From contig OZ260106.1 in the NCBI GenBank assembly GCA_965284645.1, positions 2,328,962 through 2,392,961 of the forward strand: a stretch of DNA of 64,000 bases, in the 5' to 3' direction. Made by a program: the position numbers and the translations under genes. Position 1 is the first letter of the stretch. The number at the start of each line of letters is the position of its first letter. Origin of the DNA: an uncultured Bacteroidia bacterium. GTDB lineage: Bacteria; Bacteroidota; Bacteroidia; JAIBAJ01. Shown here piece after piece: positions 6,040 through 51,525 of the stretch. The notes below the pieces were generated by a model that saw nothing but the letters and a program-made list of their open reading frames with translations, was not told where the DNA came from and did no database searches.

Positions 6040-6295
6040 GACATAAAGTTTTAAAAGTGAGCAATAGCCCTAGTAAATTCAATAAGGCAAGGAGTGGTTT
6101 ACTCTAAGGCAAAAGATGATTTTTATCCGAACAGCTTGATTTAGTTGAGTTTACCTCACCCTAATGAAATTTAGGATAGAAATTGTAGGGCTTTTTTTCG
6201 GTTTAACAACCAAGGCAAGAGGCCAACAGTGAAAAGTTTTATCCTAGTTGCAATCGAATGAAAGCAAAGGAATAAATAGTCCAATTATTCCACTT

Positions 6296-9490: not shown

Positions 9491-9635
9491 CAGAACAGTT
9501 ACAAACGTAAATCAATGGATGCAAAGAAACAGGTTAGTTTTGAATAAAAGAGGTTTAGTCGCTATTCATCCGGTTTCAGCTTTCTAGGAAGGTTAATTTC
9601 TGTTGTGAATAAACTTTTGAAACAAACCCAGATTA

Positions 9636-9773
9636 CGCATTAGAAATACATAAACGATTAACCAGTTGTAAATCAATTTGTATGGCCAAATTGATAACAA
9701 CTGCTAAATCGGGGTAAACCCAACTAAATCAAGTAGTTCGGTTTAGTAAATCCTCCTATTGATTAATTTGGGA
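9636..9773 (+). repeat. Family-2 repeat, full copy (two imperfect hairpins)
   Basis: Hairpin 1 'cagttgtaaatcaattt/aaattgataacaactg'. Hairpin 2 'cccaactaaatcaag...ctattgattaatttggg'. Matches 35867-35993. Confidence 0.75.
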
Positions 9774-9804
9774 TAAAAAAAACCGGGACAATAACTTATC
9801 CCGG
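9774..9804 (-). terminator. Rho-independent terminator candidate for the minus-strand operon ending at 10038
   Basis: GC stem 'ccggga-caataactt-atcccgg' followed on the minus-strand RNA by a U-run (plus strand 'aaaaaaaa' at 9774-9782). Confidence 0.5.
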
Positions 9805-12696: not shown

Positions 12697-12829
12697 CCCT
12701 ACAAAAGTAGAATTATTTTCTCCTAAATTGCCTTAGAATTTGGGTCATTTTTTCATTTATTCTTCAAATATTTTGCTTTTTTGTCTGATCAAATGCTTCC
12801 TATCTGCCCCATCATTTAACTATTTTTCT

Positions 12830-13000
12830 TTATTTGGTGGGCCCCCTCCGCCCATTTACCTTTGGATATATTTTACCATTCTACCTGGGGCGTTCGGGTC
12901 AGGCTTTCGGCGGTAGTCCTCGGTCCGCTTCGTTGCCCTACGCGTCCCTGTGGGCTACACTGCCTCTATCCTTGCCCTGGGCCGTTGTACCTGGCTTTGG
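12830..13000 (-). repeat. Family-1 repeat, copy C (reverse orientation, divergent variant)
   Basis: Reverse complement aligns to copies D/F/G with clustered substitutions in the middle segment. 3' hairpin 'aaatgggcggagggggcccaccaaa'. Confidence 0.8.
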
Positions 13001-18684: not shown

Positions 18685-18829
18685 ATCGGCGCGAAGATAA
18701 TAAACTTAACCCCAAAATAGTGAAGTGCCAGGAGGAGCTATTATGCTTCAGTTGTTTTTATTCACCCCATCTACCATTTTTGGATAAATCTTCACTGGTT
18801 TTATTTCACCAAATACTAGATCGGAGGTG

Positions 18830-18985
18830 TCCGGGCAAGGATAGAGGCAGTCTAGCCCACAGGGATGCGGAGGCACGGAGCAGACCGAGGACTAGCGCCG
18901 AAAGCCTGACCCAATCGCCCTTGCAGACTATTTTGTTTTCAGTAGACAGTGGTTTTGGCGATTGGGGGCCCGCCACATAAAAAAA
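18830..18985 (+). repeat. Family-1 repeat, copy D (forward)
   Basis: Core plus 3' hairpin 'ttttggcgattgggggcccgccaca' plus A-run. Lies in the divergent intergenic region. Confidence 0.85.
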
Positions 18986-19020
18986 GAAAGCATAAATGGG
19001 AAAAGCTAATAAATTGTGAA

Positions 19021-19830
19021 ATGATAAGGGATTTTCTGTTCAAAACCTATTTTTGTGCTGTGGAAAAAACAGTACCGCTCAATTTTAAAGTGTATGGCGA
19101 ATCAGGGCCTGCCTTGGTTATCGTTCATGGTTTGTTTGGCTCGTTGGACAATTGGGCAAGCTTAGCAAAAAGATTTTCTAATGATTTTCAAGTATTTACC
19201 GTCGATCAACGCAACCATGGATTGAGCCCGCATACCGACGATTTTTCCATTGAATTGCTGGCCGAGGATTTAAAGGCATTTTTGGACGACCGGAATTTAA
19301 AAAAAGTGAATCTGATAGGGCATTCGCTGGGAGGGAAAACGGGCATGCACCTGGCTATTGCCCATCCCGATCGGGTAGGAAAGTTGGTGGTGGCCGATAT
19401 TGCGCCAAAAGCGTATCCCCTGCATCATCAAGTTATTTTGGAAGCTTTGCATAGCTTGGATTTTGGCGAATTAAGCAGTAGGAAAGAGGCTGAACTTTTG
19501 ATGGGACAACGAATTCAGGAACCGTCTACCTTGCAGTTTCTGTTGAAAAACCTCACTTGGAAAGAAGAGGGGAAATTGGCCTGGAAATTCAATCTCAAAA
19601 GTTTAACCCAACATATTCAGGAAGTGGGAAAGCTCCAGGAAGGCATTTGCACCGTGGAAACGCTTTTTTTGAGAGGCGACCGATCGGGTTATATCCATGA
19701 AAGCGATTACCAAAGCATCTACCAGCAATTCCCATTTTCCGAAATTCATACCTTATCCAATTGCGGTCATTGGTTACATGCCGAACAACCTGAATTGTTT
19801 TATCAGGAGGTGAGTAAGTTTTTTGCTTAA
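19021..19830 (+). CDS. Alpha/beta-fold hydrolase (esterase/lipase-like)
   Basis: Nucleophile elbow 'GHSLGG'; His in 'CGHWLH'. The track's GTG start at 18949 lies in repeat D; first ATG is at 19021. Confidence 0.8.
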   Translation: MIRDFLFKTYFCAVEKTVPLNFKVYGESGPALVIVHGLFGSLDNWASLAKRFSNDFQVFTVDQRNHGLSPHTDDFSIELLAEDLKAFLDDRNLKKVNLIGHSLGGKTGMHLAIAHPDRVGKLVVADIAPKAYPLHHQVILEALHSLDFGELSSRKEAELLMGQRIQEPSTLQFLLKNLTWKEEGKLAWKFNLKSLTQHIQEVGKLQEGICTVETLFLRGDRSGYIHESDYQSIYQQFPFSEIHTLSNCGHWLHAEQPELFYQEVSKFFA

Positions 19831-23799: not shown

Positions 23800-23984
23800 A
23801 AAACAGTGTATTAATCGTTTGATTTATAATTCTTTGGTTTGTAAATATAGTAAAAGAATGCTTGCCAAAAAGGTTGAAATGGAAATGGGGGGGAGAGAAG
23901 GTGTTTCATTTTTAGGCGTGCCCCCTTTCGCCCTAAACCATTTGCTCGTAATTTAAACATTTTACAAAGGGCTTCAGGGTCGGG

Positions 23985-24085
23985 CTATACACTGCAAGTC
24001 CTCGCGCCCGTTCGCTTTCGCTCCGTTCAGCTGTGGGCTTTCCGTTCCTATCCCTGCCCGGAAACCTCCGAACCTGGCAGTCTGC
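23985..24085 (-). repeat. Family-1 repeat, degenerate copy E (reverse), followed by a degenerate family-2 5' module
   Basis: 'ctgcaagtcctcg...ctgtgggctttcc...ctatccctgcccg' parallels copy A. 24086-24110 'ttgaaatcaattt' resembles the family-2 start. Confidence 0.5.
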
Positions 24086-35866: not shown

Positions 35867-35993
35867 AACCAGTTGTAAATCAATTTATTTTTCCAAATGG
35901 ATAACAATTGCTATCCCTAAATTTCTTCGGGAGGGGTAAACCCAACTAAATCAAGTAGTTCGGATTATTAAATCCTCCTATTGATTAATTTGG
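35867..35993 (+). repeat. Family-2 repeat copy, immediately upstream of family-1 copy F
   Basis: Aligns to 9661-9773. Confidence 0.75.
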
Positions 35994-36021
35994 GTTTAAC
36001 CAACACCCAGGTTCGGAGGTT

Positions 36022-36180
36022 CTCGGGCAAGGATAGAGGCAGTCTAGCCCACAGGGATGCGTAGGCACGGAGCAGACCGAGGACTAGCGCCGAAAGCCTG
36101 ACCCGAACGCCCCTTGTACCCCGGTTTATTTTGGCACCGCTGTTTTTGGGCGGAGGGGGCACGCCAAATAAAAAAAAAAA
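36022..36180 (+). repeat. Family-1 repeat, copy F (forward)
   Basis: Core identical to D/G; 3' hairpin 'tttttgggcggagggggcacgccaaa' plus A12. Confidence 0.85.
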
Positions 36181-39073: not shown

Positions 39074-39109
39074 GTTTTGAAAATGTTTTTTTGTCTGTAA
39101 ATGGGTGTT

Positions 39110-39283
39110 TTTTATTTGGCGGGCCCCCAACCGCCAAAACCAGTTTAACCTTTGAATTTTTCAGTCTGCAAGGGCGGTTGGGTCAGGCTTTCGGCGCTAG
39201 TCCTCGGTCTGCTCCGTGCCTACGCATCCCTGTGGGCTAGACTGCCTCTATCCTTGCCCGAAACCGAAGTACCTGGCTTTTGT
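39110..39283 (-). repeat. Family-1 repeat, copy G (reverse)
   Basis: Reverse complement is more than 95% identical to D/F across the core; 5' hairpin 'tttggcgggcccccaaccgccaaaa'. Confidence 0.85.
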
Positions 39284-47646: not shown

Positions 47647-50600
47647 TTAATCAGCTTTTGAAACCTTATAATTAATTTGAACATCTTTAAGGCGATAGGT
47701 TGAATTAAATAATGCTGAAGTAACAGAAGGAATTGAAACGACAACATAATAAGAAAAACTGGCATTGTTTATAGTTTCACCGGTTGGCGCAAGCGTTAAT
47801 GCTTGAACTCCAGAACTTACGGAAGAGGTAGCAGAGGCAATAACTGTTGGTGCCACACCATTTGAATTATAAGGCATCTTCTCGAAAGAAACACTAATAT
47901 TCGAATTGCCTAAATCATACACATTAAAGGTTAAATTTGTTATGGATGCTCCATCAGGCAATCGTACAGGAGCTACTGCTCGTCTAAAAGATGAAGCTGT
48001 AATTGATCCCGAAAAGTATAAATAGGGTTCAGAGATAGTGCTAAACAAGTAATTATACATTTCTACGCCATCATTGGTGGGAATATCACCTCCAACCCTT
48101 TTTACGAAGTCATAAGGATTTAAAGTTAAATACCTTGTTTGTACTGTTGTATAGCTATATTCACCTCCTGTTTTAAAACCTTGGCTTCCTGTTATTGTAT
48201 TTGTACCTAAAACATCTCCTTCTACATATAATTTATAAGAAGCTTCGCTTGTTCCAATTGAAACATTCCCATTGAACAATGCATTTCCGCCATTGACATG
48301 CAATTTGGTTAAAGGTGCAGTGGTTCCAATTCCAACATTGCCAGCTGGTGAAATAGTTAACCTTGGTGTTGCTTGAATGGTAAGGTGAAGCGCTCCAGCT
48401 GTATTTCCTGCACCAGTTCCGAAGTCAATATCTCTTGGAGAAACTGAAGAAGCAAAGGAACCTAAATATCCATTATACACACCATCTTCGAATAAACCAA
48501 TATAGCCATTTGTCCCCATGTCAAAAATGGAAGTTAAAGCTGTGGAAGATTTTACATGAAGTTTTGCGGAAGTAGTCGTTGTGCCTATTCCGATATTGGT
48601 GCCATTGTCATAAATATTACTATCCTCTAATTTAAATGCAGTGGAATTCCATCTTGGTACATACTTATTGGATAACGCACCTACACGTGGATCCGTTTCA
48701 CCATTTGAAATTGCTGCTGATAGGCTAATCCATTCAGGACGGCTATTCAGTGAATTCCATCCCATGTAATAATCTGCTGCACCGTTCGTGCCATTAAGTG
48801 TAATATCTCCTGAAATGCTCGCTCCAGAGGCAACTTTAAAACTACCATTTACATCTAATCTGGCTTGAGGAAATGTAGTTCCAACACCAACATTAGTGCC
48901 ATCATAATACATGGAGGTATTGCCAAGTTCGCCTGCATCATCAAACCAAAAAGGCATCATACCGTCTGTAAGTGAACCAACGCGTGGATCGGCTTCATCA
49001 CTCCATTTTAAATATCCATTTGCATCGGCACGTAAAATTTGGTCTGTTGCACCGTAACCATTGGACGTTACAATAACCGAACTATTTAATATTGTTTCTG
49101 AATTATCCGCAAATTTTATTTTTCCATATTGAGGACCTAATTCTACATCATAATAGGTTGGTGTTCCATTCACTCCTACCAATGTGTTTCCAGAAGGACC
49201 TTGAATTACTGTTATAGAATTATCAATGACCCATTGAGAACCATCCCAATGAGGCGTTTGTCCGTTGGCGGTTCCATTTGCAAAAGAGCCTGTTGCACCA
49301 GTTGCGCCAGTGGCTCCAGTTGCACCAGTCGAACCAGCAGCACCTGTTGCACCAGTAGCTCCATTCGTTCCGTTTGTGCCAGCTGTACCAGTTGCACCTG
49401 TAGCTCCAGTTGCACCAGTTGCGCCATTCGTACCGTTTGTGCCAGCTGTACCAGTTGCACCTGTAGCTCCAGTTGCACCTGTTGCGCCATTCGTACCGTT
49501 TGTGCCAGCTGCACCAGTTGCACCTGTAGCTCCAGTTGCACCAGTTGCGCCATTAGTACCGTTTGTGCCAGCTGTACCAGTTGCACCTGTAGCACCTGTA
49601 GCTCCATTGGAACCATTCGTACCAGCAGCACCTGTTGCGCCAGTTGGGCCTGTTGCACCGGTAGCTCCATTAGTTCCGTTTGTGCCAGCTGCACCTGTGG
49701 CACCTGTTGGGCCTGTAGCACCAGTAGCTCCATTTGTACCGTTTGTGCCAGCTGTACCAGTTGCACCTGTAGCTCCAGTTGCACCTGTTGCTCCATTAGT
49801 ACCGTTTGTGCCAGCTGCACCTGTTGCACCTGTAGCACCTGTTGCACCTGTTGCACCTGTAGCACCTGTAGCTCCATTAGTACCGTTTATGCCTGCTGTA
49901 CCAGTAGCACCTGTAGCACCAGTTGCACCAGTTGCACCAGTTGCTCCATTGGTACCGTTTGTACCAGCCGCACCTGTAGCACCTGTAGCACCAGTTGCGC
50001 CATTGGTACCGTTTGTACCTGCTGCACCTGTAGCACCTGTAGCACCTGTAGCACCTGTAGCACCAGTTGCTCCATTGGTACCGTTTGTACCAGCCGCACC
50101 TGTAACACCTGTAGCACCTGTAGCACCAGTTGCTCCATTAGTGCCGTTTGTGCCAGCTGCACCAGTAGCACCTGTTGCACCAGTTGCTCCATTGGTACCG
50201 TTTGTACCAGCCGCACCTGTAGCACCTGTAGCACCAGTTGCTCCATTGGTACCGTTTGTACCAGCCGCACCTGTAGCACCTGTAGCACCAGTTGCTCCAT
50301 TAGTGCCGTTTGTGCCAGCTGCACCTGTAGCACCTGTAGCACCTGTAGCACCAGTTGCTCCATTGGTACCGTTTGTACCAGCAGCACCTGTAGCACCTGT
50401 AGCACCTGTTGCTCCATTGGTACCGTTTGTACCAGCCGCACCTGTAGCACCTGTAGCACCTGTAGCACCAGTTGCTCCATTGGTACCGTTTGTACCAGCC
50501 GCACCTGTAACACCTGTAGCACCTGTAGCACCAGTTGCTCCATTGGTACCGTTTGTACCAGCCGGACCTGTAACACCTGTAGCACCTGTAGCACCAGTTG

Positions 50601-51525
50601 CTCCATTAGTGCCGTTTGTGCCAGCTGCACCTGTTGCACCCGTAGCACCTGTTAATCCTGTTAATCCTGTTGGCCCCGTTGCGCCCGCAGCACCATTGGC
50701 TCCAGTAGCACCTGTTAATCCTGTTGGACCTGTTGCACCCGCAGCACCATTGGCCCCGGTAGCACCTGTTAATCCTGTTGGGCCTGTTGCCCCCGCAGCA
50801 CCATTGGCCCCAGTAGCACCTGTTAATCCTGTTGGCCCTGTTGCACCCGCAGCACCATTGGCGCCTGTTGCACCTGTTAATCCTGTTGGCCCCGTTGCAC
50901 CAGCAGCACCATTGGCGCCTGTTGCACCTGTAAGTCCGGTTGGTCCTGTTACACCATTAGCACCAGTTGCACCTGTTAATCCTGTTGGACCGGTTACTCC
51001 ATCGGCACCAGTTGCACCTGTTAATCCAGTTGGACCTGTAATACCATCAGCCCCAGTTGCCCCAGTTGCCCCAGGGTTTCCTGGATTTCCAGAATTAACA
51101 GAATATAAAGCAAAAGGAACAGATAATAATTCGGTTGTTCCTACTGTTTGAAAGTTAGTTCCACCAGTTGCATCCGCCTCAACTTCTACATAAATATCTG
51201 TACTTCCCCAAGAAATACTATTGTAGTTGCCTGAAACAGGGCTACCATTTCCAATTTTTACATTAAAAAGTCCCACGTTGTTGGTAGCAGTGCTTTGGGT
51301 TTCTTGATAAATGACTGTTCCTACTGGCGAAGCTTGGCGTAGGCTAATACGCAAGTTTACAGCTTGGTTTTGCTGAACTATACCGGCATTATTTCTAAGA
51401 ACTCCTTGGTAACTGATAAACCTGGACTGTGAAAATCCATAGAATGCCAAGCATACCGTAAAAACGAGGGTGGAAAGGACTCTTTTCATGGTTAGGCTAT
51501 GTGTAGTAAGTATATTCATGATCAT
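47647..51525 (-). CDS. Collagen-like (Gly-X-Y) triple-helix repeat surface protein with tail-fibre-like C-terminal region
   Basis: Signal peptide, then about 630 aa of uninterrupted GXY triplets ('GATGATGATGAAGTNGTN' units), then a C-terminal region with three 'N(V/I)G(V/I)GTT.P...L.V' motifs. The ATG overlaps the stop of the upstream gene (ATGA). Confidence 0.8.
49215..51110. repeat. Tandem 9-bp/54-bp DNA repeats encoding the collagen-like region
   Basis: Near-perfect reiteration of 'ggtgctacaggtgctaca...ggaacaaacggtaccaat' units over about 1.9 kb. The repeats produce long spurious ORFs in other frames on both strands. Confidence 0.9.

Follow-up and report, generated by a model that had tools for sequence, protein, structure and literature searches.

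A dispersed, probably Flavo-1-type repeat in an uncultured Bacteroidota lineage folds into a closed three-way junction

Can one and the same segment of a bacterial repeat fold in two mutually exclusive ways, and are both of the folds kept by selection? This question is raised by positions 18885-18976 of the window, i.e., the whole 64-kb stretch of DNA that was analysed here, which comes from an uncultured Bacteroidota lineage. A preliminary description of the segment had proposed a long-range helix competing with a local hairpin and had taken a paired substitution in one copy as a mark of selection on a folded structure.

Results

Long-range pairing in copy D

Positions 18885-18976 were found to be the 3' half of one copy (copy D) of a repeated element, the features of which are as follows (model R2 is described with the other copies below).

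18832-18982, + strand: the whole of copy D, a Flavo-1-type element that begins with the P0 5' strand and ends in the A-rich tail, as matched by model R2
18832-18836, + strand: P0 5' strand, CGGGC, pairing with 18968-18972 in the minimum-free-energy fold
18838-18907, + strand: Flavo-1-type core, from covariation counts and the alignment
18838-18840 with 18905-18907, + strand: P1
18850-18858 with 18889-18896, + strand: P2
18862-18868 with 18880-18886, + strand: P3
18910-18919, + strand: 5' strand of P4 (the long-range helix of the preliminary description), CCCAATCGCC, with the changed base T18915; 4 of the 10 pairs of this helix are changed on both sides
18920-18956, + strand: P4 loop, 37 nt, A/U-rich (the "variable insert" of the preliminary description)
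18957-18966, + strand: P4 3' strand, GGCGATTGGG, in which A18961 pairs with T18915
18968-18972, + strand: P0 3' strand, GCCCG; CGCC (18971-18974), which is the 3' arm of the local hairpin, overlaps with it
18973-18990, + strand: CC and A-rich tail (CCACATAAAAAAAGAAAG)

In copy D, CCCAATCGCC is the exact complement of GGCGATTGGG, and all 10 pairs are Watson-Crick. Copies B and G carry CCCAACCGCC/GGCGGTTGGG at P4, which in copy G is an inverted repeat with 10/10 pairs and 37 nt between the arms; the long-range complementarity was thus borne out in both D and G. Relative to B and G, copy D carries two substitutions, C->T at 18915 and G->A at 18961, on opposite sides of a single base pair, and the compensation that had been noticed in this copy is therefore real. 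When 18885-18976 (92 nt) was shuffled 3000 times, furthermore, a perfect stem of at least 10 bp appeared in only 0.2% of the shuffles.

Also, the GGCG segment at 18957-18960 has an alternative partner in copy D, CGCC at 18971-18974, and copy G likewise has a local hairpin of 8 bp (TTTGGCGG/CCGCCAAA). Because this GGCG segment is used by both P4 and the local hairpin, the two helices are mutually exclusive, as the preliminary description had stated.

Copies in the window and elsewhere

The window contains seven copies of the element (A-G) in both orientations, approximately one per 9 kb, and a search with the filters off gave no further copies there. In the list below, R2 is a covariance model for which ten published Flavo-1 sequences, extended by their 3' flanks, were the sole input (Weinberg et al. 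2010, PMC2864571, Additional file 4); its E-values are rough because the calibration was shortened.

1-72, - strand: copy A, cut by the window edge (complete copy in L024, 9450-9609); R2 28.8 bits, with the match also cut by the edge
319-489, + strand: copy B, with a long 14-bp P3 and the P4 middle AAC/GTT; weak R2 match of 15.6 bits, E = 0.21
12824-12984, - strand: copy C; R2 26.0 bits, E = 3.5e-4
18826-18986, + strand: copy D as delimited by model R1 (152 bits); R2 36.1 bits, E = 7e-7, over 18832-18982 and model positions 1-98
23903-24066, - strand: copy E, the nearest of the window copies to the Rfam Flavo-1 model (32.5 bits); R2 60.3 bits, E = 2.5e-13
36018-36177, + strand: copy F; R2 32.1 bits, E = 8e-6
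39106-39266, - strand: copy G, with a perfect P4 (10/10); R2 39.0 bits, E = 1.2e-7

Every window copy is intergenic, and the neighbours are unrelated housekeeping genes, encoding an RND efflux adaptor, a response regulator, QueA, an alpha/beta hydrolase, PhoD, a DUF445 protein, a metallo-beta-lactamase, and a GHMP kinase. Copies outside the window were taken from a Sediminibacterium MAG (L008 and L012), an Aquimarina contig (L010), and nine metagenome contigs, together with L023, which represents a relative (QueA 88% identical), and L024, which is a second assembly of the same organism; the neighbours at these loci (DHFR, RadC, GNAT, a TonB receptor, and PGK) are likewise unrelated. A loose gapped-pattern search of genome contigs gave mostly random matches, with L008, L012, and L010 as the only true ones; nothing was found in the viral contigs searched, and a protein search with an ORF translated across the element, intended to gather more copies, gave no candidates.

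The downstream gene is co-directional in 6 of the 17 copies, and in 11/17 the 3' end of the element faces the stop codon of a convergent gene, 3-146 nt away. L023 holds a copy at the orthologous site of copy C, with an entirely different P3 hairpin, and the orthologous sites of D and C are without a copy in a relative with QueA 77% identical. The element is absent in the comparison with L022, which shows only an empty site, the divergence being too great for exact insertion boundaries. Element subtypes were also found to co-exist in one genome. As for the host, the closest named relatives of its QueA are ~52% identical, and the T9SS sorting domains present in window proteins place it in Bacteroidota.

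The stem and the loop of P4

P4 is a real arm of the element, and its stem is kept by selection. The outer CCC/GGG and the inner (C)GCC/GGC(G) blocks of the stem do not vary. Two separate lineages have Watson-Crick pairs in its middle, namely AAC/GTT (B and G) together with AAT/ATT (D) in one and GTC/GAC (L008) in the other; the remaining copies have a purine-purine loop there, which is mostly GAA/GAA, with GAA/GAG in four copies and GA/AA in two, and from which L021 departs. Also, a C-G pair is exchanged for A-T in the distal (inner) block of L014, and the C-run and the G-run have been lengthened together in L012 and L015. Across the aligned copies, therefore, the covariation extends beyond the single pair of copy D, to the changes in L008, L014, and L012/L015. 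Cognate P4 strands pair with a mean of -18.9 kcal/mol versus -17.1 kcal/mol for swapped strands, and 0/20000 permutations reached the observed mean, a figure that is inflated by the relatedness of the copies, in which at least four independent events are visible. In the published Flavo-1 sequences, a hairpin is located at the same position with unrelated stem sequences. Selection on a folded structure, as had been suggested for the whole 3' module, is hence supported for P4 by the independent compensations and the swap test but not for the local hairpin, which does not covary.

The loop of P4 is 33-42 nt long in 16/17 copies and has common ends (TTGCAGA.. and ..AATGGTTTT). The cores of D, F, G, L016, L017, and L008 are 94-100% identical, but the P4 loops of these six copies are near random, with 51-70% identity (44-70% with copy C added) versus ~50% for shuffled loops. 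The insert between the two arms had been described as copy-specific, which holds for its sequence, near random in the middle, but the insert is not free in length or at its ends. In about 150 kb of DNA searched, the P4 loops have no matches elsewhere; a guide-like role of the loop was dismissed, the matches in that DNA being none beyond chance.

A closed three-way junction

The fold of the single strand is a closed three-way junction, in which P0 is the closing helix and the P1-P3 core and P4 form the two arms. In 20 copies, 94.4% of the cells in the core are paired, 12/23 pairs are changed on both sides, and none of 500 shuffles was as good; the corresponding values for the whole junction model are 87.3%, 15/30, and again 0/500. 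When the 3' partners were slid along, pairing in the same 20 copies dropped to 33-46%. All of the 30 junction pairs are Watson-Crick in copy D, and the closed junction is the minimum-free-energy fold in nine copies of the window family. The thermodynamic z-scores are modest, with means of -2.2 (forward strand) and -2.0 (reverse strand).

The same architecture was obtained from the published sequences; a fresh run of RNAalifold on ten of them predicts P0, P1-P3, and P4 as a closed three-way junction, in which P0 covaries (n = 10), with GC -> UA in 4/10 at one pair and GC -> AU at another. In the published flanks, ..AGCCCGACC is followed by a hairpin CC(C)..GG(G) of 8-38 nt, one spacer base, and the pentamer CACGC (or AACGC/AAUGC); CACGC can pair throughout with GCGUG, which is conserved at the 5' end. 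GCGUG/CACGC is exchanged for GCGUU/AACGC in 4/5 of the published sequences with GCGUU, and GCAUU pairs with AAUGC; P0 is consistent in 14/15 published sequences. In 15/15 of these, P0 is followed by C or CC and then mostly by an A-rich stretch, which most copies examined here also have. In terms of position, CGGGC and GCCCG of the window correspond to the published GCGUG and CACGC, respectively. Within the window family, P0 shows no covariation, and its support therefore comes from homology with the published sequences; a central G.A mismatch, GGGGGCACGCC, is present in P0 of 7/18 window-family copies.

Two other pairings were tried and rejected. One was the 3' helix that RNAalifold had first proposed, GCCCC/GGGGC, which hardly covaries and is disrupted in L014, a copy with a compensated P4; the other was an outer P1, in which GGG would pair with CCC of GACCC. 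P4 and P0 took the place of the two.

Relationship to Flavo-1

As judged from sequence, the element belongs to the Flavo-1 RNA motif (RF01705), an orphan motif of Bacteroidota, as a divergent variant. No match was obtained for the whole window at the Rfam gathering threshold; the gathering score of RF01705 is 42 bits, which no copy reaches, and sub-threshold matches to the core were given by L014 (35.5 bits), L015 (34.5), copy E (E = 0.0055), and L017b (27.9). Copies D, F, and G gave no RF01705 match up to E = 10. Model R2, in contrast, matches 6/7 window copies at an E-value, approximate as it is, of 3.5e-4 or less, the exception being copy B; five of these six, including copy D, cover the whole model, and only copy A, cut by the window edge, does not. 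Since a model made from the published copies alone matches the window copies, the curated Rfam threshold would miss a divergent Flavo-1 variant.

The window copies align column by column with the published Flavo-1 alignment (PMC2864571, Additional files 4 and 5), and direct alignment with the Flavo-1 sequences of F. psychrophilum and F. johnsoniae shows the core and the 3' end in common. The elements of the core consensus were all found, namely P1 with its AUAG/A(U)AG flanks, P2, CCCACAG, a variable P3, GAGGAC, and AGCCYGACC. Like published Flavo-1 (PMC2864571), the window element resides in Bacteroidota, in many copies per genome, with no consistent gene association; a closing helix, a hairpin after GACC, and a similar C/CC and A-rich tail are also shared with the published flanks.

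Several differences were nonetheless noted. P0 is CGGGC/GCCCG in the window element versus GCGUG/CACGC in published Flavo-1, and the P4 stem of the window family has 8-11 pairs and a loop of ~35 nt, whereas in most published sequences these are 3-7 bp and 3-12 nt. P4 of the window family is Watson-Crick throughout in B, D, G, and L008 and is interrupted by the purine loop elsewhere. The host belongs to an uncultured lineage outside Flavobacteriaceae, with related copies in the Sediminibacterium MAG. Furthermore, the Rfam Flavo-1 model consists of the core only and has no outer helix, so that both P0 and P4 are absent from it.

Discussion

RNA or single-stranded DNA

Taken as a whole, the explanation that we regard as probable is a dispersed Flavo-1 variant of ~150 nt with a closed junction, in which the local hairpin is a by-product and the strand is recognised by shape and is probably selfish. 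The folded strand, most likely a transcript, would be recognised by a trans-acting factor, and the family would be an intergenic repeat of high copy number, probably selfish or mobile, and would not regulate adjacent genes in cis. Such a repeat is favoured by the density of the copies, their two orientations, their occurrence in every type of intergenic region, and the subtypes side by side in one genome, as well as by the empty sites of D and C in a relative and the published plasmid copies and F. psychrophilum matches described below. It is more likely that the folded strand is RNA than single-stranded DNA. The forward strand folds better in 15/17 copies, and the helices have features of the RNA type, such as the purine-purine internal loops of P4 and GNRA tetraloops in variants of P3 (GAAA in E; GUAA in L012/L015).

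Alternatively, the family might be mobile at the level of DNA, as are MITE- or REP-like elements, with a single-stranded DNA fold being recognised by a transposase or an HUH-type enzyme and RNA having no role. High copy number, both orientations, the empty orthologous site, and the co-existing subfamilies would all be consistent with such an element, as would the rarity of G.U pairs in the helices. Also, the published Flavo-1 alignment (PMC2864571) includes copies on the Bacteroides plasmids NC_006873 and NC_004703, and in the transcriptome of F. psychrophilum the Flavo-1 matches are sense, antisense, or outside transcribed regions, many of them being outside (PMC9723704). Nonetheless, we consider this alternative unlikely. 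The better folding of one strand and the RNA-like loops (mostly GAA/GAA) and tetraloops described above argue against it, and no orientation bias is seen along the window. Terminal inverted repeats, which together with a target-site duplication would mark a MITE- or IS-derived element, were sought around copies C, F, and G and were not present, nor was a target-site duplication found; no transposase, TnpB, or reverse transcriptase gene was found in the window. Since no mobilising enzyme, terminal repeats, or target duplication was found, mobility is inferred from the distribution of the copies.

In this distribution, the element resembles the mobile or repeat candidates from the Breaker laboratory (PMC11109978) as well as REP/BIME, ERIC, and BOX, all of which are multicopy and intergenic, have a conserved fold and inconsistent orientation, and are often located beside the 3' ends of genes. 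The window element differs from these in that no transposase, integrase, or RAYT gene was seen with it, and in that its fold is no simple palindrome but a three-way junction, in which many unpaired bases are conserved. A more daring version of the selfish reading, to which we give little credence, is that Flavo-1-type elements are structure-dependent and spread via the folded single strand, for example by SINE-like copying of RNA into DNA; the conserved closed scaffold and the variable-length A-rich 3' tail would fit it. In such a process the P4 loop might, although this too is improbable, be renewed or diversified at each copying event; if true, the SINE-like reading would explain why cores identical at 94-100% stand beside nearly random loops.

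The local hairpin and the possibility of a switch

The local hairpin is present in 17/17 copies with 4-9 bp, and 4-5 GC pairs are kept in each. It had been proposed as a second structure of the module, and the element would then be a bistable RNA switch, riboswitch-like or triggered by a protein, in which P4 (with P0) alternates with the hairpin. Indeed, each of the 17 copies could in principle form either helix, the hairpin has a conserved GC core with an adjoining G.U pair in five copies that works only on the given strand, and a minimal GGG..CCC alternative exists in the 3' ends of published Flavo-1. A switch is nevertheless very unlikely, given that covariation of the hairpin is not above that of shuffles (72% paired, 42/500) and its swap test gives p = 0.26. 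The GC pairs of the hairpin never covary, and the hairpin is broken without compensation in C (G->A), D (the top pair and the tail), and L013 (C->A); in D, the substitution that costs the hairpin stability (G->A) is the same one for which P4 has a compensating change. When each helix was imposed in turn, the fold with the hairpin came out 2-13 kcal/mol less stable in 15/17 copies, the difference in D being 13.0 kcal/mol.

The outcome of such a switch would be altered expression of a neighbouring gene or altered activity of the RNA, which is equally doubtful. The hairpin is followed by no U-tract and hence is no terminator; on both strands, the U-run precedes the hairpin, and a terminator role was rejected. 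A co-directional downstream gene is found in just the 6/17 copies mentioned above, and the conserved -7 box (TATTTTTG) of the gene next to copy D is located downstream of the copy, which is therefore not the leader of that gene. In this neighbourhood, the alpha/beta-hydrolase gene that follows D has its probable start near 19064 and is preceded by a -7 box of the Bacteroidota type, CCTATTTTTG, that is conserved between the window (19040-19070) and a relative (L022, 7120-7150); the longer ORFs listed from 18949 or 19006 overlap copy D and are likely artefacts.

The likeness to a riboswitch expression platform lies in the X-X'-X arrangement of segments, where one strand has two possible partners. 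Such platforms have two selected alternative helices and a consistent 5' UTR position with a terminator or a start-site-sequestering helix; in the copies examined here, by contrast, P4 but not the local hairpin covaries, the energy gap is large, and neither a U-tract nor a consistent downstream gene is found. One closed junction is thus a better description than a switch, because the hairpin lacks covariation, has uncompensated breaks, and is less stable; for the idea of a switch, which is left without support, the outcome is sobering. The 3' arm of the hairpin is explained by the P0 3' strand together with the conserved CC that follows, and the hairpin (GGCG/CGCC) would be a by-product of the junction, because in this lineage the extended 5' strand of P4 (..CGCC) resembles the conserved 3' end (..CGCC), and either can therefore pair with GGCG. 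A transient role for the hairpin may still exist.

Chance and known RNA classes

Chance complementarity among the G- and C-runs of a GC-rich repeat, with a 3' module devoid of any selected structure, would draw on the short G3/C3 and GGCG/CGCC blocks that allow several alternative pairings, and on the third pairing that RNAalifold had first proposed (GCCCC/GGGGC), but is hardly tenable in view of the rarity of such a stem in shuffles, the several independent compensations and matching length changes, the partner-swap test that was passed and the pairing lost by slid partners, and the hairpin position kept in distant published sequences with unrelated stems.

Known classes of structured nucleic acid were also considered and rejected. 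Riboswitches, twister and hammerhead ribozymes, RNase P fragments, and tRNA-like folds, which had come into question by their resemblance in sequence, gave no Rfam match. A TnpB/IscB omega-RNA and a dCas12f guide RNA were discarded for the lack of an effector gene in the window and for the wrong size and context; dCas12f guide RNAs are 85-105 nt long and adjoin dcas12f (bioRxiv 10.1101/2025.06.10.658865). A G-quadruplex in GGCGGxxGGGGG would be broken in copy D, where P4 is compensated.

Implications for the Flavo-1 motif

A divergent subfamily that is, to judge by these comparisons, of Flavo-1 and occurs approximately once per 9 kb in an uncultured Bacteroidota lineage is thus missed by the current Rfam annotation. 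The results indicate that the Flavo-1 motif extends beyond its curated model by a closing helix that covaries and a hairpin that is variable, with which it becomes a closed three-way junction, and an extended structural model with P0 and P4 is a useful by-product of this analysis. Such an improved model would reveal many more copies and permit covariation statistics as well as mapping of presence and absence, the latter being a way to tell an RNA gene from a mobile element.

Other repeats in the window and around the element

Two further short repeats were noticed in the window. One is a 'AACCAGTTGTAAATCAATTT' module (114-168, 9625-9706, and 35867-35913), and the other is a hairpin of ~70 nt with 21-nt arms that are 86% complementary (9711-9777, 35933-35999, and, inverted, 6125-6186). 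The two are often neighbours, occurring immediately upstream of copy F and close to copy A, and both gave Rfam matches at chance level only. Also, a coding repeat with a period of 9 nt occupies 49163-51000 within an ORF of 1292 aa (47647-51525, - strand), for which 177 overlapping 300-nt copies are reported; the local GC there is up to 0.45-0.47, and a neighbouring ORF has SprB and T9SS sorting domains.

As for the outside contigs, AT-rich 'GGAATTAAAAATT' repeats are located downstream of the element in L012 (2640-2710), L014 (1540-1607), and L015 (1270-1338), and contig L018 ends (1-30) in an Illumina adapter, AGATCGGAAGAGCACACG, inside the element, which is an assembly artefact in the public record. 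In six copies on different contigs, finally, CAACTG or a close variant is found 41-43 nt upstream of the core, namely in C (about 13026), G (about 39308), L015, L017, L018, and L023, and this hexamer might belong to the repeat as a 5' module or serve as its promoter element.
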